From the IMG/VR virus record IMGVR_UViG_3300045988_104990, positions 1 through 41,141 of that record: a stretch of 41,141 nt of DNA; one strand, written 5' to 3'. The first letter of the stretch is position 1. The number at the start of each line of letters is the position of its first letter. Under the pieces are notes generated by a model that saw only the letters and a program-made list of their open reading frames with translations, ran no database searches and had not been told where the DNA came from. Below, piece by piece: positions 320 through 37,750 of this stretch. This stretch comes from a virus. Both the position numbers and the translations under genes were made by a program.

Positions 320-1000
320 ATGAAAGCACATTTACTTTTTGAACAATCAGGCACATTTAAGAATGCTTTCAAGAAGAATGGCATAGACGCTTTCGATTAC
401 GATATACAAGACGAATTCGGCGAAACAGATTATATTATTGACCTGTTTGGCGAGATTGAAAAGGCATACGTGGGGGGGCAAAGCATTTTTGACAGCTTTG
501 ATTGCGAAGATATTATAATAGCGTTCTTCCCCTGCACAAGATTTGAAGCGAGAATACCCTTATCATTCAGAGGACAGTCAACGCAGCAGAAGAAGTGGAC
601 TGACGAACAGAAGCTTGAGTACGCAATGGGGTTGCACGAAGAACTCCACAAGCTGTATGTGCTTCTCTCAATGCTTGTTATCGTAGCAATACGGAAAGGC
701 CTGAGAATGATAATCGAAAACCCATATACGCAACCACACTACTTGACAACATACTGGTGCATTAGACCTAAACTGATAGATAAAGACAGAACGGTGAATG
801 GAGACTTTTACAAAAAGCCAACACAGTATTTCTTTATTGGTTTTGAACCAAAAAATAATTTTCTGTTTGAACCTATCGAGTGGGTTGAAAAAAAGACTAT
901 TGCACACGTTACTGGAACGGCAAGCACAAGCCGTCAGACAGAAAGAAGTATGATGCACCCGCAATATGCGGACAGATTTATAAGACAATATGTACTTTGA
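320..1000 (+). CDS. Small DNA (cytosine-5-like) methyltransferase-like protein
   Basis: GGAG at 311-314, then ATG 320. Motifs resemble C5-MTase motif I (LFEQSGTF), motif IV (FFPCTRF) and motif VI (IIENP). At 226 aa it is short, with no clear TRD or motif X. Confidence 0.5.
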   Translation: MKAHLLFEQSGTFKNAFKKNGIDAFDYDIQDEFGETDYIIDLFGEIEKAYVGGQSIFDSFDCEDIIIAFFPCTRFEARIPLSFRGQSTQQKKWTDEQKLEYAMGLHEELHKLYVLLSMLVIVAIRKGLRMIIENPYTQPHYLTTYWCIRPKLIDKDRTVNGDFYKKPTQYFFIGFEPKNNFLFEPIEWVEKKTIAHVTGTASTSRQTERSMMHPQYADRFIRQYVL

Positions 1001-1013
1001 AAGGAGAAAAAAT

Positions 1014-1760
1014 ATGAAACAGAATGAATGGGCTAAGAATGAAGTGAAACTAGCTTGTGAAAGAGAAAAGAGAATGTGCACTGAGGACAATCGTCCGGAG
1101 GATGCTAATTATGGAATTGCCTGCTATAAAAGTGCTCTTAAAGCTTTTAACAGTTTGTGTAAGGACGGGCATAGCGGATGTAGTATAGGAATAACAAGGG
1201 CTATATTAGATGCGCTCATTGATGGTAAACCTCTAACTCCTATTGAGGATACTCCAGAGGTTTGGGGTCCGCCTGAGGATTGGAGAGAAGGTTGTTTGAT
1301 GTATCAGTGCAAACGTATGTCAAGACTTTTCAAGAAGGTAGACTCCGAGGGTAATGTTAGTTATGATGATGTCGATAGAGTTACTTACGTAGATATTAAT
1401 AATCCAACAGTAGCTTGGCATAATGGCATGGTTAGAAGAATTGTCGGTGAGATGTTCCCTATAACTATGCCGTACACAGGTGATGTAGAGTATATAGTTT
1501 ATGGAGAAGATTGCTTATTTGATCGCACTCGTGGAGATTATGATACACAAGGTTTTTACTATATTATCAAGAAAACCCCCGGTGGAAAAGAGGAAAAAAT
1601 AAAGCTAAACAGATATTTTAGGGAATCTCTCGAAGGTGAAAAAGAAGACATTGAATATCCCGGTTGGGTTGAAATTTCAAGAACAACTTATAACAGAAGA
1701 AAAAAGAAAGCCGAAGAAGAAGCGGAAAAACTTAGCGGATTACTGGCAGAAAGGAAATAA
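1014..1760 (+). CDS. Hypothetical protein
   Basis: AGGAG RBS before ATG 1014. Long ORF co-oriented in the early operon. No motif recognised. Confidence 0.6.
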   Translation: MKQNEWAKNEVKLACEREKRMCTEDNRPEDANYGIACYKSALKAFNSLCKDGHSGCSIGITRAILDALIDGKPLTPIEDTPEVWGPPEDWREGCLMYQCKRMSRLFKKVDSEGNVSYDDVDRVTYVDINNPTVAWHNGMVRRIVGEMFPITMPYTGDVEYIVYGEDCLFDRTRGDYDTQGFYYIIKKTPGGKEEKIKLNRYFRESLEGEKEDIEYPGWVEISRTTYNRRKKKAEEEAEKLSGLLAERK

Positions 1761-7376: not shown

Positions 7377-7553
7377 ATGAAAGGACTAAAGAAGTGTCCC
7401 AAATGCGGCGGAGAGCCCGAGAGAGTTGCAACGTGGTATGCAGATGGCAAAAACGGCTACACAAAGGAGGTCGTACGCTGTACAGTATGCGGCAAAAATG
7501 TCGCAAGAAAAACTGGACAGGAAGCGGTCAAGGCGTGGAACAGATTGAAGTAA
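7377..7553 (+). CDS. lar: Lar-family restriction-alleviation-like protein (58 aa, not in ORF track)
   Basis: Hand translation gives MKGLKKCPKCGGEPERVATWYADGKNGYTKEVVRCTVCGKNVARKTGQEAVKAWNRLK. The CPxCG...CxxCG...eAvxaWNr pattern matches the Lar family as I remember it. AGGAG lies upstream. Confidence 0.6.
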   Translation: MKGLKKCPKCGGEPERVATWYADGKNGYTKEVVRCTVCGKNVARKTGQEAVKAWNRLK

Positions 7554-8870: not shown

Positions 8871-8899
8871 AGCCCCCTTTACGGGGGCTTTGTGTTTTT
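8871..8899. terminator. Bidirectional rho-independent terminator
   Basis: AGCCCCC-tttac-GGGGGCT, followed by TTGTGTTTTT and preceded by an A-run. It sits between convergent genes. Confidence 0.8.
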
Positions 8900-9062
8900 A
8901 TCTAGCCTCTACTACTTCATACCATGATTCGTAGTAGCTTTCTTTTTCGGCAGCAATCACTGCCGCTTCTTTTTCGGCTTCCTCGAAGCTGTCGGCACAA
9001 ACGCCGTACACCCTTGTTTTGCAGCCGCTTTCGCAGCTTCTGAAGATAACATCATAATTCAT
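8898..9062 (-). CDS. 54-aa acidic Cys-containing protein (not in ORF track)
   Basis: AGGAG RBS. Hand translation gives MNYDVIFRSCESGCKTRVYGVCADSFEEAEKEAAVIAAEKESYYESWYEVVEAR. Confidence 0.5.
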   Translation of the reverse strand: MNYDVIFRSCESGCKTRVYGVCADSFEEAEKEAAVIAAEKESYYESWYEVVEAR

Positions 9063-9077
9063 TGCTTAGCTCCTTTC

Positions 9078-9272
9078 CTATACCTGAAAATCATTATGAC
9101 TTTCTCTATATTCCCGCAGGGCTTTTTTAATTAAGCCCTGCTTATTGTTTGTTTTTGCTAACATATCTAGTATGTCAGCGTCTGTTCGATAATTTAATTT
9201 TATTGTTTGATAGGTCGTGTTTGACCTATCCCACGCCGCCTTTTGGGCGTTTCTTTTTTCCGGGGATACCAT
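9078..9272 (-). CDS. Small protein, possible ribbon-helix-helix DNA-binding fold
   Basis: YQTIKLNYRTDADILDMLAKTNNKQGLIKKALREY resembles Arc/MetJ-type RHH proteins, weakly. Its start overlaps the upstream stop by 1 nt. Confidence 0.5.
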   Translation of the reverse strand: MVSPEKRNAQKAAWDRSNTTYQTIKLNYRTDADILDMLAKTNNKQGLIKKALREYRESHNDFQV

Positions 9273-9454
9273 TACGCCAGTTCCTCTCTTGTGTCGCCTC
9301 GTACAACAGCGTAGAAGTTCGGCTGATACATTCCTTCTTCTTTGTCGTGCGCCTCATATTCAGCTATAAGGGCAAGGCCTGCTTCAACGCTTTCAACTTT
9401 CTCGATTAAGTTGCCGGCTTCTCTGTCGGCTGTCCAAATTTCGTACTTCTTCAT
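9272..9454 (-). CDS. 60-aa strongly acidic protein
   Basis: ORF with GGAGAAAAAAC-ATG RBS. High Glu/Asp content. Confidence 0.55.
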   Translation of the reverse strand: MKKYEIWTADREAGNLIEKVESVEAGLALIAEYEAHDKEEGMYQPNFYAVVRGDTREELA

Positions 9455-9512
9455 TGTTTTTTCTCCTTTTCTTTTTATTATGCCCCTGTAAGGGGGCGAG
9501 TGTCAATTGTTT

Positions 9513-9776
9513 TTAGAAGCTTATCGCTTCGCCTACAGCTTCATAGCTTGTAAGCAGGTGATACTTTAACGCCTTGTAGCTGTCAAGGTTCTTTGCAATC
9601 AGGTCCTTGACAACGTCCTTGTTTACCTTGACGTTCAATCTGTCGACAACGCCGAACATAAACTCAACGTTGTACAGTCCGGGCGAATCGTAATAATTCG
9701 ACAGAACGTTATATGCAATTTTTTGTTCGCCGCAGCACACCTCACGCGCCACGTTTCTTATTTTTGTTGTTTTCAT
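9513..9776 (-). CDS. Hypothetical protein
   Basis: GGAGG RBS before the ATG at 9776. 87 aa. Confidence 0.55.
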   Translation of the reverse strand: MKTTKIRNVAREVCCGEQKIAYNVLSNYYDSPGLYNVEFMFGVVDRLNVKVNKDVVKDLIAKNLDSYKALKYHLLTSYEAVGEAISF

Positions 9777-9849
9777 TTCATTACCTCCATTGCTTAGCCT
9801 GTTTCGCTCTTGCTCATCAGTGCCGGACTTTTACCGGCAGACAGGGGGG

Positions 9850-10005
9850 CTATATCCTAACCCCTAACAGCATACAAGTACGTTTTGCCTCGCAGAGTGT
9901 GAGCCAGTTCTCAGAGCTCATGTCTGCTATGTAGTTGGCTCTTGCTTTCATATATACTGCCTTTGCCTCGGCTTTTCTGTCTTCTAACTGTTTTAAATGT
10001 GTCAT
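9850..10005 (-). CDS. 51-aa protein
   Basis: GGAGGTG RBS 6 nt before the internal ATG at 10005 (MTHLKQLEDRK...). The longer 10074 start would overlap the upstream gene. Confidence 0.5.
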   Translation of the reverse strand: MTHLKQLEDRKAEAKAVYMKARANYIADMSSENWLTLCEAKRTCMLLGVRI

Positions 10006-10007
10006 CT

Positions 10008-10169
10008 TTACACCTCCCACGCTTCCGCTTCTTCTAATGTGCGGAAGTATTTTCCGCAGCCGCAGTAGCACCAAGTCTTACCGCCGTCTATGCTGCGCCA
10101 TATCTGCGCATTGTAGTTATAACCGTCTACTGGAAGCTCTAGCTTCTTTATTTCTTTCTTTTCTAACAT
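10008..10169 (-). CDS. 53-aa protein (not in ORF track)
   Basis: GGAGAAAAC RBS. Hand translation gives MLEKKEIKKLELPVDGYNYNAQIWRSIDGGKTWCYCGCGKYFRTLEEAEAWEV. Confidence 0.5.
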   Translation of the reverse strand: MLEKKEIKKLELPVDGYNYNAQIWRSIDGGKTWCYCGCGKYFRTLEEAEAWEV

Positions 10170-10225
10170 TTTTGTTTTCTCCTTGCTTAGCTGTTGTTTT
10201 CGACGGTGTCCCCGTCTGTGATTAC

Positions 10226-10255
10226 ATCATAGCACCGCACCCCCGGAGCTGTCAA
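10226..10255 (-). promoter_or_regulatory. Sigma-70-type promoter driving the minus-strand small-gene cassette
   Basis: On the minus strand: TTGACA (10255..10250), an 18-nt spacer, then TATGAT (10231..10226). It lies about 60 nt upstream of the first cassette gene. Confidence 0.6.
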
Positions 10256-10290
10256 CACTTTTTTTCAAAGTTTTTTCAAAAACCGCTGAG

Positions 10291-10309
10291 ACCGTTGAAA
10301 TTCCAACGA
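10291..10309. repeat. 19-bp element ACCGTTGAAATTCCAACGA containing palindrome CGTTG-n6-CAACG (copy 1)
   Basis: Identical at 18 of 19 positions to 11158..11176. The internal inverted repeat was read directly. Confidence 0.85.
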
Positions 10310-10498
10310 AAAAATTTTGAAAATGTGCCAACAGGAAGCCAAGCGGCGCGCATATAATGTATTATAATATATATAAATAAAAGTATTTCTTCTAAAACTG
10401 ATTGTTTCATAGTTTTAATTTACTCCTTGAAAATTATTCGGACGACAGCGGGACAAAATCCTGCTGTTTTTCGTTATACAGGAGGAAAGGGGGCACAT

Positions 10499-11011: not shown

Positions 11012-11012
11012 A

Positions 11013-11155
11013 GCATAAACATACATTCGTTTGTATAAAAGTATCAGAATATCCCGAGGAAATACCTCAAATATTGCATAAACAGCGTATATCCATTGCA
11101 TAAAGCAGCATAACAGAATATGCATAGATACAGCATATAGACCATAAAACAGCTA
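11013..11155 (+). repeat. Array of 5-6 degenerate GCATAAAC(AGC)-like repeats downstream of terS
   Basis: GCATAAAC at 11013. ATTGCATAAACAGC at 11074. ATTGCATAAAGCAGC at 11095, which is 21 bp later. GCATAACAG at 11107, TGCATAGATACAGC at 11121, CCATAAAACAGC at 11142. Confidence 0.7.
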
Positions 11156-11157
11156 TA

Positions 11158-11176
11158 ACCGTTGAAATACCAACGA
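11158..11176. repeat. 19-bp element ACCGTTGAAATACCAACGA (copy 2)
   Basis: 18 of 19 positions match 10291..10309. The two copies bracket terS. Confidence 0.85.
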
Positions 11177-11199
11177 TTACAGGCAATACAGGCATGCAA

Positions 11200-11229
11200 C
11201 TATTCCGAAGATAAGGATTTTCGGAATAG
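11200..11229 (+). promoter_or_regulatory. Perfect 10-bp stem hairpin CTATTCCGAA-n10-TTCGGAATAG
   Basis: Read directly. Followed by only a short T-run, so its function (terminator or protein site) is unclear. Confidence 0.6.
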
Positions 11230-11442
11230 TTTAAACATACATATACCCCGAAGAAATTTTTTTGAGGGGTACAGGGGGGACTGGGGGATACCGGGGTACC
11301 GGGTAGTGAATACCGGTATGGTCCGGAGAGTAAGTATCAAATCTGAAACGACCCCCTCGTCGAAATCTTCCCCCGTAGGTAGGGTACCTCACCCGTGCAA
11401 CCCAATTTCAAAACACCCCCTACCAAAAAATAGGTGGTATAT

Positions 11443-11512
11443 GCCGACGTAGCTCAGATGGTAAGTCCCGTTAAGCACAAGGTCGCAGGTTCAAGTCCTG
11501 CTGTCGGCGCCA
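11443..11512 (+). tRNA. tRNA-like element or degenerate tRNA: acceptor stem, T-arm and encoded CCA intact, but no foldable anticodon arm
   Basis: GCCGACG pairs with TGTCGGC for a 7-bp acceptor stem. The T-arm is GCAGG-TTCAAGT-CCTGC, followed by discriminator G and CCA. The D-loop start is GCTCAGATGGTA. Only 67 nt lie before CCA. No 5-bp stem with a 7-nt loop can be drawn in positions 14-42. Confidence 0.45.
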
Positions 11513-11564
11513 GCAATCCATATAATTACCTCCGAAGCATTTCGGGAAAATCCTTTTAAGTCGT

Positions 11565-11592
11565 GGCAGGAGACTGAAAACCCTGCCTTTTA
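11565..11592 (+). terminator. Hairpin plus T-run downstream of the tRNA-like element
   Basis: GGCAGG-n11-CCTGCC followed by TTTTAAT. Confidence 0.5.
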
Positions 11593-11594
11593 AT

Positions 11595-11762
11595 ATGATA
11601 GTAGACATAAATAAAAACAGGCCACACGAAGTATCAGAGCTTATCTGTTTAAAGTGCCTGCACAGATGGATAGGAGTATATCCGAAAGACACGCCATTAA
11701 AAGACATTGTATGTGTATGCGGTGAAAGCGGCTATGTAATAAAAACAGGGCAGACATTATGA
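11595..11762 (+). CDS. Possible 55-aa CxxC..CxC protein upstream of terL (not in ORF track)
   Basis: Hand translation gives MIVDINKNRPHEVSELICLKCLHRWIGVYPKDTPLKDIVCVCGESGYVIKTGQTL. ATGA overlap with the terL start. No convincing RBS. Confidence 0.35.
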   Translation: MIVDINKNRPHEVSELICLKCLHRWIGVYPKDTPLKDIVCVCGESGYVIKTGQTL

Positions 11763-34423: not shown

Positions 34424-34632
34424 CATAAAAGTACTAAAAAGGTACTAAAAAGTTATTTAAAACGCTTTTTTTCGCATATAATAGCCAAAATCAGCGTATT
34501 AAAAACGTTGAAATATCAATATTCATCAAAATCTATCAAATTCCAAGAGTTACTAGCTAACTAGCTTTATAGTGATATTATACTGTAAATTTCAACATTT
34601 TGCAAGATACAAAGTACTAAAAAGGTACTATT
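34424..34632. repeat. attP-like region: 20-bp direct repeats AAAGTACTAAAAAGGTACTA (34428, 34611), built from 11-bp GTACTAAAAAG units, flanking an AT-rich segment
   Basis: Repeats were read directly. The second copy abuts the integrase stop codon. Between them lie ACTAGCT-A-ACTAGCT (34552-34566) and three (T/C)ATCAA(A/T) motifs. Confidence 0.6.
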
Positions 34633-35647
34633 CTATCATAGAAACAAACTCTTCCTGTTTGTTCGGATAAAGATGGGAATATGTAGCAAGGGCTGTTCCC
34701 GGTGTGTCGCCAAGTCTTTCAGCGACAAGCAGTATATTACAGCCAAGCTCAATCATCATAGAAGCATGAGAATGTCTCAAGTCGTGCATTCTGATAACAG
34801 GCAAGTCCTGTTCTGCCAATGCACGTCTAAACTCATTCCTTAGTGGTGTTCTACTGGCTTTGAACAGCGTGTCAGACGGCGTCAAGCCATACCTTGCATT
34901 TATATAGTCCCTAAGTTCATCAACAAGGAAGCCGGGAATAATAACCTTGCGTATGGAATTAGGTGTTTTTGGCTTTGTAACTACTTTCCTTTGGGATATG
35001 TTTTTGTTTATGTTAATGCTTTTGTTCTCCAAATCTATATCTGCTAGCGTCAGGGCGAGACATTCCCCTAGACGCATGCCCGTATAAAATAGAGTATCAA
35101 ACACAGCTTTGTATGTAAGGTTGGAGAATTTAAGCTGTTCGTATTGTTCTCGTGTAAGTATTGTATAGTTGCGTTTTTCTTTTGGTACAATATGCTTTGC
35201 AGTTCTGACGGGGTTTTCCTGCAGACCGCAAAAGGTGATCCCCCAGTTAATAATGCAGCTTAAAACTGCGGTTATATTTCTAATGGTGGTTGAAGCAAGC
35301 CCCTTTTTCTGCAGAGAGTACTGCCAGTTCTTAATTGCAAGAGGTGTTACCTCAGACGCAGAACACTTGAAAAAACCGAGAATATGGTTGTCTGCCATAG
35401 ATTTATGTTTAATGTATGTGCTTTCTTTTACCCTTGCCTTTAAGTCCACAAGATACTTATTAACAAGGGTGTCAAAGCTAATATCGTTGTTGACAGCAGC
35501 GTGATTTTCAATAAAATCTCTTTCCCACGCAAGAGCTTCTTTTCTCAAGTCAAAGCCTGACTTCTTCTTCTGCTTTCTTTCTCCCGAATAGTCTTTATAG
35601 TAGAATTTGCAGTACCATTTCCCGTTTTTGTCTTTATATGCAGGCAT
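34628..35647 (-). CDS. int: Tyrosine integrase
   Basis: N-terminal arm-binding-type MPAYKDKNGKWYCKFYYKDYSGERKQKKKSGF. C-terminal catalytic RLGE...HDLRHSHAS...LGDTPGTALATYSHLY. Confidence 0.95.
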   Translation of the reverse strand: MPAYKDKNGKWYCKFYYKDYSGERKQKKKSGFDLRKEALAWERDFIENHAAVNNDISFDTLVNKYLVDLKARVKESTYIKHKSMADNHILGFFKCSASEVTPLAIKNWQYSLQKKGLASTTIRNITAVLSCIINWGITFCGLQENPVRTAKHIVPKEKRNYTILTREQYEQLKFSNLTYKAVFDTLFYTGMRLGECLALTLADIDLENKSININKNISQRKVVTKPKTPNSIRKVIIPGFLVDELRDYINARYGLTPSDTLFKASRTPLRNEFRRALAEQDLPVIRMHDLRHSHASMMIELGCNILLVAERLGDTPGTALATYSHLYPNKQEEFVSMIE

Positions 35648-36884: not shown

Positions 36885-37256
36885 TTATGCGTCTTGATAA
36901 ATATCACACAGCCGTATAGATTGCTCAATATTATCAATAATAATTTTTCTGCTAAAGTCGTCCAGTGTGTCGCCTGAATATTCAACATTAGCGGAATTTC
37001 TTAGTAAAAACGCCAGTTTTGTAAGTTCCAACTTGACGTCAAATGGTGGTATTTCGGTTTGTTCCCCTTTTAGTATATAAGCTACAGGGGCTCCGAGATA
37101 TGCACTCAGCTTGTTTAGGGCAGGAACAGACGGTACTGTATTTTTCCATTTGCAAGCGTTACCTCTAGGGAAGCCTATATCTCTTTCCATTTGAGCAACA
37201 GTTACTCCTTGTTTTTCGCACAATGCCTTTACTCTATCGTATACTGTTTCGCCCAC
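36885..37256 (-). CDS. cI-like XRE-family repressor
   Basis: GTG start after GGAAAGGAGG. N-terminal HTH VYDRVKALCEKQGVTVAQMERDIGFPRGNACKW. Divergent from the cro-like gene. Confidence 0.8.
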   Translation of the reverse strand: MGETVYDRVKALCEKQGVTVAQMERDIGFPRGNACKWKNTVPSVPALNKLSAYLGAPVAYILKGEQTEIPPFDVKLELTKLAFLLRNSANVEYSGDTLDDFSRKIIIDNIEQSIRLCDIYQDA

Positions 37257-37287
37257 GACAAAAACCTCCTTTCCTTAAAAAATATTA

Positions 37288-37366
37288 GACATACGCAAAA
37301 AACCTATTGACAGTCGTACCGACATACGCTAGAATAAGAGTGTGAGATACGACACACAATCGTATC
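37288..37366. promoter_or_regulatory. Operator-like repeats: GACATACGC at 37288 and 37321, and inverted repeat GATACGA-n7-TCGTATC at 37346-37366
   Basis: One repeat copy lies inside the promoter spacer. The inverted repeat lies just downstream of the -10. Confidence 0.55.
37307..37335 (+). promoter_or_regulatory. Early rightward promoter (TTGACA-17 nt-TAGAAT)
   Basis: -35 at 37307-37312 and -10 at 37330-37335, read directly. Confidence 0.65.
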
Positions 37367-37510
37367 GAACTACGATTAAATCAGCGGCAAACTGAAATTT
37401 AAGCGGAATCAATACGGCAAAAGTGCCCAATTTAGTGTATGTAGTTGTTTGCGTATTATTAATGTACACCAGATTGCGTAAATTGTCAATATAAATTCGT
37501 ATTTATTTCA

Positions 37511-37750
37511 GTGCTAAAATGTGGAAAGGAGTTGGAGAAAAGTTTGAAAACAGAAATTATTATCAAGAATATTGAAGAAGTGGCAAAACGCAAAGGTTTA
37601 TCCATTGCGGCACTCGAAAGAAAAGCAGGCCTTGCTAGAGGTCATTTCTACAAGCTGAAAAGCACAGCGATGCAGCTTGAAACTCTTGCAAGAATAGCAG
37701 ACGCACTGGACGTTTCTGTTTCCTACCTGCTTAGAGAAAGAAAGGAGTAG
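37511..37750 (+). CDS. Cro-like XRE-family HTH regulator (start may be TTG 37544)
   Basis: NIEEVAKRKGLSIAALERKAGLARGHFYKLK is an HTH. Divergent from the repressor gene. A GGAG lies 7 nt before TTG 37544. Confidence 0.75.
   Translation: MLKCGKELEKSLKTEIIIKNIEEVAKRKGLSIAALERKAGLARGHFYKLKSTAMQLETLARIADALDVSVSYLLRERKE

Follow-up and report, generated by a model that had tools for sequence, protein, structure and literature searches.

A hypervariable, inverted operon of small genes with a predicted hammerhead ribozyme and a ribbon-helix-helix-like gene next to terS of a temperate phage

What could be the role of six tiny genes that lie in reverse between the gene of a RinA/ArpU-type activator and terS in a phage genome? 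The locus that raises this question is part of a window of 41,141 nucleotides, which is the whole stretch of DNA analysed. Its genes read in the same direction as the lysogeny genes of the 41-kb window and opposite to all lytic genes, and the GC and AT skew change sign in 9001-10000 only. That the phage is temperate is indicated by a tyrosine integrase (34628-35647) and a CI/Cro-like pair in the same window. The closest terL relatives are those of Staphylococcus and Bacillus siphophages, at 46% identity, and a DNA search of GenBank phages gave no match. A preliminary description of this DNA had proposed an inverted cassette wedged between the late activator and terS, and both this position and the six minus-strand ORFs are borne out here; it had counted four ORFs below 60 aa, where we find three, as ORF D is exactly 60 aa long. 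The six ORFs are the following.

10169-10008, minus strand: ORF A, 53 aa, pI 5.3, with one Asp-box-like motif (SIDGGKTW) and a CYCGCG stretch; no family
10005-9850, minus strand: ORF B, 51 aa from its ATG, basic and predicted to be helical; no family
9776-9513, minus strand: ORF C, 87 aa, pI 8.5; an ORFan
9454-9272, minus strand: ORF D, 60 aa, pI 4.5, net charge -7; a small beta-beta-alpha-beta domain
9272-9078, minus strand: ORF E, 64 aa, basic (pI 9.6); ribbon-helix-helix (RHH)-like
9062-8898, minus strand: ORF F, 54 aa, pI 4.4, net charge -6, three Cys; no family

In the ORF list made by a program, ORF B appears as a 74-aa ORF with a TTG start.

To compare the locus with its relatives, we used 18 loci in which the flanking activator is at least 98% identical, and a wider set of 20 cassette versions. 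A coding-like pattern in related phages had been named in the preliminary description as what real genes should show, and purifying selection was found on all six ORFs. Across the related loci, pN/pS is between 0.05 and 0.22 for ORFs A (0.05; present in 9 of 18 loci), B (0.22), C (0.08; 6 of 18 loci), E and F (0.05). For ORF D it is 0.53 among the 60-aa copies, which have few changes and three variable sites, all at third codon positions, and 0.30 against a diverged homologous domain. Each of the six ORFs is preceded by a GGAG-type ribosome-binding site; that of B lies within the last codons of A, and D and E overlap in TAATG and are translationally coupled.

The signals that could make the cassette a transcription unit are as follows.

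10226-10255, minus strand: promoter P1, TTGACA (10255-10250), an 18-nt spacer and an extended -10 element TGc-TATGAT (10234-10226); 11 of 12 positions match
10202-10216, minus strand: palindrome or 5'-UTR hairpin GACGG-GGACA-CCGTC, about 10 nt past the -10 element of P1
9477-9506, minus strand: internal promoter P2, TTGACA, an 18-nt spacer and CATAAT; 11 of 12 positions match; upstream of ORF D
8871-8889, both strands: bidirectional intrinsic terminator with a 7-bp GC stem and T-runs on each strand
10170-10495, no strand assigned: divergent control region between cassette and terS, highly conserved among the related loci, which holds P1

The near-consensus promoter noted before (TTGACA-18-TATGAT, 10255-10226) is one of five sites with at least 11 of 12 matches in the 41-kb window, where 1.0 would be expected. 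It points away from terS, is kept in all 20 related loci, and recurs in the same design in the distant phages L026 and L047. At the other end, the proposed bidirectional terminator is indeed present as a hairpin with T-runs on both strands, and is predicted to end both the cassette and the plus-strand activator operon; the block of homology common to all relatives stops exactly there, at 8897/8898. With a strong, conserved promoter and a terminator of its own, the cassette has what the proposed independent transcription calls for. The divergent control region presumably also contains an activator-dependent late promoter. A 44-aa ORF within it (10410-10276, upstream of P1) was considered as a seventh gene and is probably not coding, its length ranging from 44 to 72 aa across loci with a pN/pS of 0.68. 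The internal promoter P2 contains a GC palindrome (GCCCC-TTACA-GGGGC) within its spacer and is conserved wherever the 60-/90-aa F1 gene or the 178-aa gene of L003 comes next; in L003, L010 and L014 the 3' end of the element described below runs directly into it.

Between ORFs B and C, the transcript is predicted to carry a self-cleaving RNA with a hairpin at its 5' side.

9796-9847, minus strand: type III hammerhead ribozyme between B and C, with predicted cleavage at 9840|9839
9846-9864, minus strand: hairpin 5' of the hammerhead, GGGGUUA-GGAUA-UAGCCCC, overlapping the stop codon of B

The catalytic core of the hammerhead is complete, with CUGAUGA, a stem II of 2 bp (GC-AAGA-GC) followed by GAAA, the U16.1-A15.1 pair next to stem III (CCUG/CAGG) and a GUC cleavage site; stem I is UGCCGG-UAAAAGU-CCGGCA, and the MFE fold gives a three-way junction. 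The Rfam model RF00008 aligns over its full length with 28.1 bits (E = 0.0024), below the gathering score of 48.5, and a scan in gathering mode gave no match in the window. The shortfall is due to stem II, which at 2 bp is about 12 nt shorter than the model expects, and it means that this subfamily, some 20 bits under the gathering score, is overlooked by standard annotation. Our own covariance model (R1) scores the site at 79.8 bits and finds it as the single site of the 41-kb window, with no second hammerhead.

That the hammerhead is maintained as a structure came from 24 distinct copies in other phages, in which 94.6% of the positions to be paired are paired (stem I 100%, stem III 88%) and 8 of 14 pairs have double changes. 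None of 500 shuffles reached this covariation score, and controls slid along the sequence pair at 24-43%. Since the copies were gathered with the exact core and stem II as bait, the covariation is informative for the pairs outside the core and stem II and not for these. A stable hairpin is found at the 5' side in 32 of 32 distinct copies with unrelated sequences (mean z = -2.7); to judge from its position, it would lie close to the 3' end of the upstream product once the RNA is cut. The hammerhead directly follows B in every locus that has one except L005, while L009 has B without a hammerhead; in the distant phage L033, a B homologue of 68% identity is also found upstream of a hammerhead.

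Hammerheads of prophages have been reported to flank variable genes and often to have a stem II of 2 bp, and processing of a polycistronic prophage RNA was observed in vitro (Perreault et al. 2011; PMC3088659). The present element resembles those type III hammerheads (PMC3088659; RF00008) in its complete core, its three helices with loop-closed stems I and II, its short stem II, and its place between genes of a polycistronic unit of a temperate phage with inconstant gene neighbours (PMC3088659). It differs from other prophage hammerheads in its fixed stem II (GC-AAGA-GC), its conserved 7-nt loop I (UAnnAGU) and its obligatory 5' hairpin, and in belonging to a fixed frame that also comprises a strong promoter and an RHH gene and has a defined place in the genome.

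One could argue that the ORFs are not genes and that the likeness to a hammerhead is fortuitous and the region a spacer separating two operons, as the products are all tiny and without a named family and the Rfam score is under threshold. Such a spacer would not be expected to show purifying selection on six ORFs, a ribosome-binding site at every one of them, a skew that fits coding on the minus strand, 266 cluster representatives of E homologues and confident AlphaFold2 models of E and D; nor would a chance hammerhead show double changes in 8 of 14 pairs among 24 distinct copies. We consider this explanation extremely improbable, and effectively refuted by the comparative data.

How constant is the cassette? 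The synteny comparison had been predicted to show hypervariability if the locus were an island, and this is what we observed: in the 18 loci, where the activator is 98-99% identical, 16 families are arranged in 15 gene orders. Its frame nevertheless persists in distant phages. In L026 and L047 (terL 59% identical), the inverted cassette fills the interval from terS to the activator and again comprises a promoter, an RHH gene and a hammerhead, and in L033 (terL 57%) the hammerhead follows the B-like gene beside terS-terL on a contig that ends before any activator. No empty locus was seen: every relative, including those with 59% identical terL, has a filled cassette, the smallest being the three genes of L067. 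Alone among the genes, ORF E occurs in all 20 versions. D accompanies it in 15 of the 18 loci, with L001, L002 and L003 having E without D. ORF F occupies an exchangeable last slot, which in other loci holds Cys-rich proteins of 60-117 aa; a Cas11a-like match of one alternative last-slot protein (E = 0.002) is too weak to be used. In a frequent alternative cargo of 85 aa (MIKKLLAAVLALSITTG...), the N-terminus resembles a signal peptide or that of a lipoprotein, and small membrane proteins are among the cargo of distant cassettes. For ORF C, a search of 5.8 billion proteins found no relatives beyond near-identical ones. Neither P2, nor the hammerhead (9847-9796), nor E as an invariant anchor had been part of the preliminary description.

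Breakpoints of these cargo swaps are found where short junction motifs lie, where the ribozyme ends on its 3' side, and at the terminator.

9790-9798, minus strand: junction motif GCTAAGCAA(TG), with more copies at 10191-10183 and 9070-9062

The motif GCTAAGCAA has six exact copies in the window, where 0.74 would be expected, and coincides with breakpoints between cassette variants; the cassettes of L011, L015, L016 and L018 have the appearance of deletions from one copy of it to another. It was considered as a regulatory box and rejected, as it also precedes genes at 7377 and 40158. Judged from where its copies lie, the motif is better explained as the spacer that this phage favours from ribosome-binding site to ATG, which inside the cassette would also serve as a recombination joint. 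A far-reaching reading of these joints is that the locus is a gene-cassette exchange platform of metagenome-derived (probably gut) temperate phages, in which promoter, RHH governor and hairpin-hammerhead form the frame, the junctions are recombination joints for integron-like swaps of small counter-defence genes, and ribozyme cleavage is the functional core. We hold this to be rather unlikely. If it were true, cleavage would make every inserted block an mRNA that is stable and translatable on its own and, in many sister copies, would free a Shine-Dalgarno sequence paired inside stem III, which would give a concrete function to phage hammerheads, whose biological role is unsettled.

As ORF E is the constant gene, its identity is central to the question. 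The proposal that its product may be an RHH protein agrees with the AlphaFold2 model (pLDDT 92.9), in which an extra N-terminal helix (residues 4-18) is followed by an extended segment (19-31), a helix (32-40), the turn NNKQG and a helix (44-58). After its extra helix, the monomer model thus has the RHH layout of an N-terminal strand and two helices joined by a short G-containing turn, and the family consensus is KLNxxTDADIIxxLxxxxNKQGxIKxxIR. The similarities at family level are all weak and all to RHH proteins, namely pSK41-type ParR, NikR, BrnA, VapB and 56B. The E profile has four matches in the PDB, including ParR 2q2k (E = 0.57) and NikR (E = 0.9), ParR NF010497 is matched by 7 of 61 family members with E values down to 6e-4, and single members match BrnA, VapB or 56B_RHH weakly, every RHH-family sequence match of E itself being below significance. 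A Foldseek search with the monomer gave no RHH match, and no close relative turned up when E was searched against a collection of one genome per species. Tandem-duplicated E homologues occur naturally (P0003, P0015), which fits an obligate-dimer fold. The best relative, itself sub-significant, is the N-terminal RHH domain of pSK41-type ParR (2q2k; NF010497), with which E shares the register of strand, helix and helix. Unlike ParR, E has the extra N-terminal helix 4-18 and lacks a C-terminal ParM-interaction domain, a partner ATPase and a centromere-like repeat array.

The palindrome near P1 offers a candidate operator for E and/or a 5' stem-loop that may stabilise the mRNA. All 20 versions have this palindrome some 10 nt past the -10 element, and in L005 its pairing is kept by a compensatory change (GACGC...GCGTC), while L003 and L004 have AACGG...CCGTT instead, with a second copy within the P1 spacer. 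The alleles of the E strand region go together with those of the palindrome. The strand YQTIKLNYRT occurs with GACGGGGACACCGT in 17 loci including L067, SQTIKLNNNV with GACGCGGAGGGCGTC, and RVTVTLYHST with AACGGAACA(G/A)CCCGTT, whose second copy is inside the P1 spacer; this pairing stays while the cargo from P1 to E is reshuffled. Such tracking suggests autoregulation like that of Aca or Arc, and we presume E to be the repressor of P1; as there are three alleles, with the minority ones in one and two loci, common descent could also explain the pairing. The palindrome in the P2 spacer is invariant with respect to the E allele, so that control of P2 by E is not indicated. The versions GACGGGGACACCGTC and AACGGAACAGCCCGTT are candidate targets for E and its 75-aa allele.

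RHH-controlled units are known from phage P22, where immI (arc-ant-mnt) is embedded among late genes. E could, by this comparison, be an RHH antitoxin or an Arc/Mnt-type repressor whose partner, D or other cargo, is a toxin or an antirepressor that controls prophage maintenance or induction. RHH folds are common among antitoxins, the weak matches to BrnA and VapB point the same way, and D and E are translationally coupled and together in most loci. D is an acidic protein of 60 aa that does not look like a toxin, and in sister loci its domain is the C-terminal repeat of three-repeat proteins of 211-223 aa; E does without it in three loci, no cargo protein matches a toxin or antirepressor (Ant/KilAC) family, and the recognisable toxin that always stands beside the antitoxin in type II systems is not found here. 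An addiction module or immI-like switch is in our opinion improbable.

What could the cargo do? The preliminary description had suggested anti-defence proteins, perhaps DNA mimics, in view of several strongly acidic products. We found D and F to be acidic, though moderately rather than strongly so, and confirmed that no member falls into a family that can be named, with no match in Pfam, PHROGs, NCBIfam, PADLOC or PDB sequences. The same databases gave no match of any of the 16 cargo families to known anti-defence, defence, toxin or exclusion proteins, and D and F have no sequence similarity to solved DNA mimics of the Ocr/ArdA type. The D model (AlphaFold2 pLDDT 90.9) is a compact beta-beta-alpha-beta domain, not an elongated acidic helical mimic; Foldseek found nothing in the PDB at E <= 0.001, and in BFVD uncharacterised phage proteins only (TM 0.71-0.74). 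The long F1 form as a query likewise retrieved near-identical relatives only. Of the six proteins, E and D were modelled; the models give E an RHH-like layout, and D resembles no solved structure. Of the earlier interpretation, the transcription unit, the hypervariability and the RHH-like E stand, while the anti-defence and DNA-mimic functions lack support, no cargo protein having a known family or fold.

Operons of similar layout are known from counter-defence. Anti-defence genes in such operons are repressed by the RHH regulator Aca14, which acts on an inverted repeat at the -10 element, and 5'-UTR hairpins are also bound by Aca proteins (bioRxiv 10.64898/2026.07.27.740549). Here, too, a strong promoter of constitutive type drives small, fast-changing genes without families together with one conserved small protein predicted to bind DNA, an inverted repeat lies at or next to the -10 element with a structured 5' UTR, and the regulator (E, 20/20) is stable while the cargo varies; the likeness to acr-aca and Aca14 operons is one of operon layout. 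Unlike in acr-aca operons, all 20 versions are devoid of known anti-CRISPR or anti-defence genes and their homologues, E does not stand last in the operon, there are an internal promoter and a ribozyme, and regulation by E is inferred.

Superinfection exclusion, or a cluster of morons, would fit the same anatomy equally well. In the latter case, the genes would be expressed in the prophage and benefit the lysogen rather than the infecting phage, for example by excluding superinfecting phages, by supplying small secreted or membrane factors, or by defending it against other phages. Like lambdoid morons and P22 immI, the latter controlled by small RHH repressors, the cassette has its own host-type promoter and factor-independent terminator, which is the anatomical definition of a moron, and runs with the lysogeny genes against the lytic genes of a temperate phage; the candidate CI operator repeat taken from the immunity region was not found at P1 or P2, and the 85-aa cargo and the membrane proteins of distant cassettes could act in a lysogen. 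Unlike morons and immI, the locus is filled in all relatives and varies in content alone, so that it is not "more DNA" in the strict sense; in no relative is it absent with the flanking genes adjacent. Its composition is typical of the genome (GC 43.7% against about 42% in the rest), and it has no antirepressor. Moreover, the cargo is mostly soluble, tiny and often acidic, without a match to a defence or exclusion family, and an autorepressing RHH protein with a strong promoter would suit a burst better than steady expression. We regard a moron cluster as a possible but less likely explanation.

We lean, with modest confidence, towards an autonomous accessory operon, governed by an RHH protein and processed by a ribozyme, whose exchangeable cargo serves counter-defence or superinfection exclusion. 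We propose that P1 would be fired by the host RNA polymerase without phage factors, either at once on infection or in the prophage. The hammerhead would then cut the transcript between 9840 and 9839, leaving an A-B message whose 3' end, a protective hairpin, carries a 2',3'-cyclic phosphate, and a C-D-E-F message that begins with a 5'-OH followed by the stem I hairpin. Like an insulator, this cut could uncouple the stability and translation of the two halves. Dimers of E on the P1 palindrome may, as with Aca or Arc, silence the operon once a burst has passed, while the cargo proteins would target the host, or rival phages, as factors of counter-defence or superinfection exclusion.

Prophage hammerheads have been known since 2011, and here one is a fixed part of a delimited, hypervariable operon of small genes. 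On the practical side, Rfam's curated threshold overlooks the present hammerhead subfamily, and the 16 cargo families offer a short, prioritised set of dark-matter phage proteins that could be screened for anti-defence or exclusion activity. Nature also provides the controls: near-isogenic phages exist that have or lack the ribozyme, that differ in their cargo, or that carry one of three regulator alleles with its matching palindrome. They make two questions testable in one system: what self-cleavage does in a phage operon, and whether an RHH protein is the governor of an accessory, possibly counter-defence, island of Firmicutes-type phages.

Here, we have established the anatomy and coding status of the inverted cassette between the activator gene and terS, the fold of the ribozyme that it carries, its variability among related phages and the invariance of its gene E. 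The preliminary description proposed six minus-strand genes at this position, and all six ORFs were recovered together with the regulator that precedes them:

10169-10008, minus strand: ORF A, 53 aa
10005-9850, minus strand: ORF B, 51 aa counted from the ATG
9776-9513, minus strand: ORF C, 87 aa
9454-9272, minus strand: ORF D, 60 aa
9272-9078, minus strand: ORF E, 64 aa
9062-8898, minus strand: ORF F, 54 aa
8435-8851: RinA/ArpU-family regulator (phrog_36, E = 2e-14; TIGR01636, 29.3 bits, slightly below cut-off)

Each ORF is preceded by a GGAG-type ribosome-binding site, that of B lying within the final codons of A; a TAATG overlap joins D to E. In a genome that is otherwise plus-strand, the GC and AT skews flip sign only in the 9001-10000 bin. 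Comparison across related loci shows purifying selection on all six ORFs: five of them (A, B, C, E and F) have pN/pS values of 0.05-0.22 and vary mostly at third codon positions, while D gives 0.53 among its 60-aa copies, where changes are few, and 0.30 against a 66%-identical homologous domain. The short ORFs are real, three rather than the claimed four being below 60 aa, and D and F are acidic (pI 4.5 and 4.4), moderately rather than strongly so. The flanks agree with the preliminary description and comprise a RuvC-like resolvase, the RinA/ArpU-family regulator, terS, which most likely starts at 10496, and terL. The spacer between terS and terL (11012-11758) is variable. Rfam calls a tRNA in it at 11443-11509 (34.1 bits, threshold 29) and ARAGORN finds none; 11599-11757, missing from sister loci, carries an ORF of 55 aa, rich in Cys (11595-11762) and overlapping the start of terL. 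The terL of two sister loci (L009, L018) encodes 812 aa rather than 477-485 aa with a weak LAGLIDADG match, probably an intein or homing endonuclease inserted in the terminase gene.

The promoter proposed at the head of the cassette, P1 (10255-10226, minus strand; TTGACA-18-TGcTATGAT), stands out as one of just five sites in the 41-kb window matching at least 11/12 positions, compared with 1.0 in shuffles. The bidirectional terminator is likewise borne out by a hairpin at 8871-8889 with T-runs on both strands. A second near-consensus promoter that had escaped notice, P2 (9506-9477, minus strand; TTGACA-18-CATAAT), lies immediately upstream of D, and its spacer is a GC palindrome. The divergent control region (around 10276-10410 and 10300-10400) is highly conserved, with an AT-rich block adjoining GCGCGCC (TATATATATTATAATACATTATATGCGCGCC, minus strand). 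The 44-aa ORF that crosses it (10276-10410, minus strand) varies in length and has a pN/pS of 0.68, and the activator-dependent late promoter of terS is probably located within this region.

The 73-nt gap between B and C contains a complete type III hammerhead ribozyme (9847-9796, minus strand), also unnoticed before, with the following elements read from the sequence:

minus strand: stem III, CCUG/CAGG plus U16.1-A15.1
minus strand: cleavage triplet GUC, predicted cut at 9840|9839
minus strand: stem I, UGCCGG-UAAAAGU-CCGGCA
minus strand: core, CUGAUGA, closed by GAAA
minus strand: stem II, GC-AAGA-GC

A default Rfam scan called no hammerhead at 9847-9796; a permissive scan matched the full RF00008 model at 28.1 bits (E = 0.0024 for that scan; gathering score 48.5). 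Since the copies of sister phages are nearly invariant, we searched IMG/VR for wider copies with the 20-nt core and stem II as bait and obtained 38 stretches from many metagenomes; genome assemblies of Clostridia and Bacteroidia added four more copies whose stems are proper. In a gap-free alignment of 24 distinct copies, stems I and III are strongly backed, with 94.6% of cells paired as against 24-43% with slid partners. Compensatory double changes occur in 8 of 14 pairs, pair 1.1-2.1 uses U-A, A-U, C-G and G-C, and none of 500 shuffles reached the observed covariation. Despite the variable stems, loop I (U-A-n-n-A-G-U) is conserved, which is what a tertiary contact would require. When the window is scanned with a covariance model made from these copies, a single site is found (79.8 bits), and the minimum-energy fold recovers the three-way junction. 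Directly 5' of stem III, all 32 distinct copies have a stable hairpin of unrelated sequence (mean z = -2.7); in the window it spans 9864-9846 and overlaps the B stop codon. For prophage hammerheads, Perreault et al. 2011 (PMC3088659) reported that a 2-bp stem II is frequent, that the flanking single genes or short gene blocks are of inconstant identity, and that polycistronic RNA is processed in vitro. Because of these features, the hammerhead in the window is a newly found member of this known class, from a subfamily below curated thresholds. In many subfamily copies (L021, L023, L026, L028, L033 and others), stem III has GGAG(G) as its 3' strand with an ATG 5-10 nt on, so that the downstream gene has its ribosome-binding site paired inside the ribozyme; the site could become exposed once the ribozyme is cleaved and the short 5' strand lost. 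The window differs in that the ribosome-binding site of C is ∼10 nt downstream of the hammerhead.

Searches of IMG/VR, ENA and Logan assemblies with the activator and exact copies of D and E yielded 18 loci including the window, and every contig with E is below 50 kb. The variability for which a check had been proposed is pronounced: at 97.8-99.3% activator identity to the window, the interval from the activator stop codon to terS holds 15 gene orders drawn from 16 protein families, with cassettes of 1.2 to 2.9 kb. Homology breaks at four places, namely the terminator (8897/8898), the hammerhead 3' end (joined to GCTAAGCAATGGAGG or straight to P2), P2 itself, and the short motif GCTAAGCAA(TG). 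This motif occurs six times in the window, three of them inside the cassette, against 0.74 expected; it is the spacer that the phage prefers between a ribosome-binding site and the ATG, and is found ahead of the genes at 7377 and 40158 too. Four loci (L011, L015, L016, L018) look like deletions between two of its copies. The parts that stay constant in 18 of 18 loci and in two further ones (L067, L068) are P1, the palindromic hairpin that directly follows it and gene E; the D-type domain is found in 15 of 18 and the hammerhead in 12 of 18.

Comparison with distant relatives indicates that the cassette design is old. Two loci (L026, L047) whose terL, activator and terS are 59%, 32% and 26% identical to those of the window keep an inverted cassette between terS and activator, with a TTGACA-17/18-TGcTATGAT promoter, an RHH-type gene, a hammerhead and unrelated small cargo; their 5'-UTR hairpins differ by a compensatory change. 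The hammerhead copy of L047 has no recognisable GUC site or stem I and may be degenerate. In L033 (terL 57%), a hammerhead follows a 68%-identical B-like gene and adjoins terS-terL, the contig stopping before any activator. In another phage group, the same hammerhead subfamily is flanked by homologues of two alternative cargo proteins, one J-domain-like and of 165 aa (phrog_15863), the other of 137 aa.

Gene E had been suspected to encode a ribbon-helix-helix (RHH) DNA binder, and the structural model and weak family matches agree. Among 1.84 billion cluster representatives, searched exhaustively, there are 266 relatives at E <= 1e-3, most of 55-90 aa, with the consensus W-D-x-x-N-T...KLN-x-x-TDADII-x-x-L-x(4)-NKQG-x-IK-x-x-IR. 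One match, the 775-aa P0008, has ∼10 tandem degenerate repeats resembling a translated DNA repeat and is probably a gene-calling artefact. The AlphaFold2 model made with the family alignment (pLDDT 92.9) has a helix at 4-18, an extended segment at 19-31 and helices at 32-40 and 44-58, and as modelled E is an RHH unit with an additional N-terminal helix. Family-level similarities are all weak, yet point in the same direction: a PDB profile search gave just four matches at E <= 10, the best being the RHH domain of pSK41 ParR (2q2k, E = 0.57) and the third NikR (E = 0.9); the ParR model NF010497 is matched by 7 of 61 family members, and BrnA, VapB or 56B_RHH by single members. Foldseek with the E monomer as query was uninformative. 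An RHH strand pairs only once the dimer forms. Tandem fusions of the E domain occur naturally (P0003, P0015), as expected for an obligate dimer.

E occurs as three alleles that differ chiefly in the predicted strand region, each paired with its own palindrome ∼10 nt past the -10 of P1:

YQTIKLNY(R/K)T: palindrome GACGGGGACACCGT(C), 17 loci
SQTIKLNNNV: palindrome GACGCGGAGGGCGTC, stem preserved by compensatory change, L005
RVTVTLYHST: palindrome AACGGAACA(G/A)CCCGTT, L003 and L004

L003 and L004 have a second, near-identical palindrome copy, AACGGGACAGCCCGTT, within the P1 spacer. Such pairing would be expected if E reads the palindrome, as DNA operator or as RNA hairpin, the minority alleles being seen in one and two loci. 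With so few loci, shared descent could also produce the association; the cargo between P1 and E varies inside the allele groups, and the palindrome in the P2 spacer is constant across alleles. A close functional precedent for E reading the P1 palindrome is Aca14, an RHH protein that represses anti-defence operons via an inverted repeat at the -10, and 5'-UTR hairpins can be bound by Aca proteins (2026 preprint, 10.64898/2026.07.27.740549).

As the preliminary description found, no cassette member falls in a nameable family: A-D, F and ten alternative cargo proteins gave no meaningful match in Pfam, PHROGs, NCBIfam, PADLOC or solved-structure sequences. The signals seen are a single Asp-box motif in A, a weak J-domain signal and an unannotated PHROG for the 165-aa alternative protein, and a Cas11a match (E = 0.002) for a 117-aa last-slot protein. 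The J-domain-like cargo (165-173 aa; cassettes of L005, L013 and L047, and L021-L057) has HSD replacing HPD in its N-terminal segment (Pfam DnaJ, E = 8e-4), a W-rich C-terminal motif and a strong match to the unannotated phrog_15863 (3.6e-41); in several phage groups it is again a neighbour of this hammerhead subfamily. C is an ORFan confined to this phage group. The D domain has close relatives only and forms the third repeat of a 211-223-aa protein in sister loci; its model (pLDDT 90.9), a beta-beta-alpha-beta unit, has no neighbour in the PDB and in BFVD resembles uncharacterised phage proteins only (TM 0.71-0.74). Since the cargo lacks meaningful matches and the D fold a PDB neighbour, the anti-defence or DNA-mimic reading is a candidate rather than a supported one. 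The traits that had suggested it, namely independent transcription, tiny proteins, hypervariability and a small DNA binder, are all present, but morons expressed from a prophage and superinfection-exclusion loci have them as well. A tyrosine integrase (34628-35647) and a CI/Cro-like pair mark the phage as temperate; the cassette is oriented like the lysogeny genes, and the N-terminus of one common alternative cargo protein resembles a signal peptide. The candidate CI-operator repeat is absent from P1 and P2.

That repeat, GACATACGC(A/T)A, occurs at 37288 and 37321 with an inverted partner at 37444-37463, in the immunity region (37257-37510), which has the CI-like gene (36885-37256, minus strand) on one side and the Cro-like gene (37511-37750, plus strand) on the other; these are likely operators, and an 11/12 promoter lies at 37307 (plus strand). 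Elsewhere in the window, a 256-aa early-region protein (990-1760, plus strand) followed by a DUF1351 protein strongly matches the Pfam family of Tad3, which inhibits type I Thoeris (PF25185, E = 1.7e-27, residues 11-137), so a recognisable anti-defence-type gene lies in the plus-strand early operon, outside the cassette. A 58-aa protein (7377-7553, plus strand) matches Lar, a protein of restriction alleviation (PF14354, E = 1e-7), and is found in all sister loci, twice in some.

Taken together, we lean slightly towards the following scheme. P1 would be fired by host RNA polymerase without phage factors, and the 5' hairpin after it would stabilise the transcript, serve as target of E, or both. 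Hammerhead cleavage at 9840|9839 would leave an A-B message ending in a hairpin and cyclic phosphate, and a C-D-E-F message starting with a 5'-OH and then the stem I hairpin; with such ends, the two halves are proposed to decay and be translated independently. P2 would give D-E-F a separate input, E dimers would feed back on P1, and the cargo would target host or competitor functions, counter-defence and benefit to the prophage being about equally likely roles. Precedents exist for each ingredient (prophage hammerheads, morons, and RHH proteins that regulate accessory operons); the novelty lies in combining them in one conserved frame, at a fixed genome position, in a diverse metagenome-derived phage lineage. 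The natural variants of this frame open the roles of the ribozyme and the regulator to experiment.
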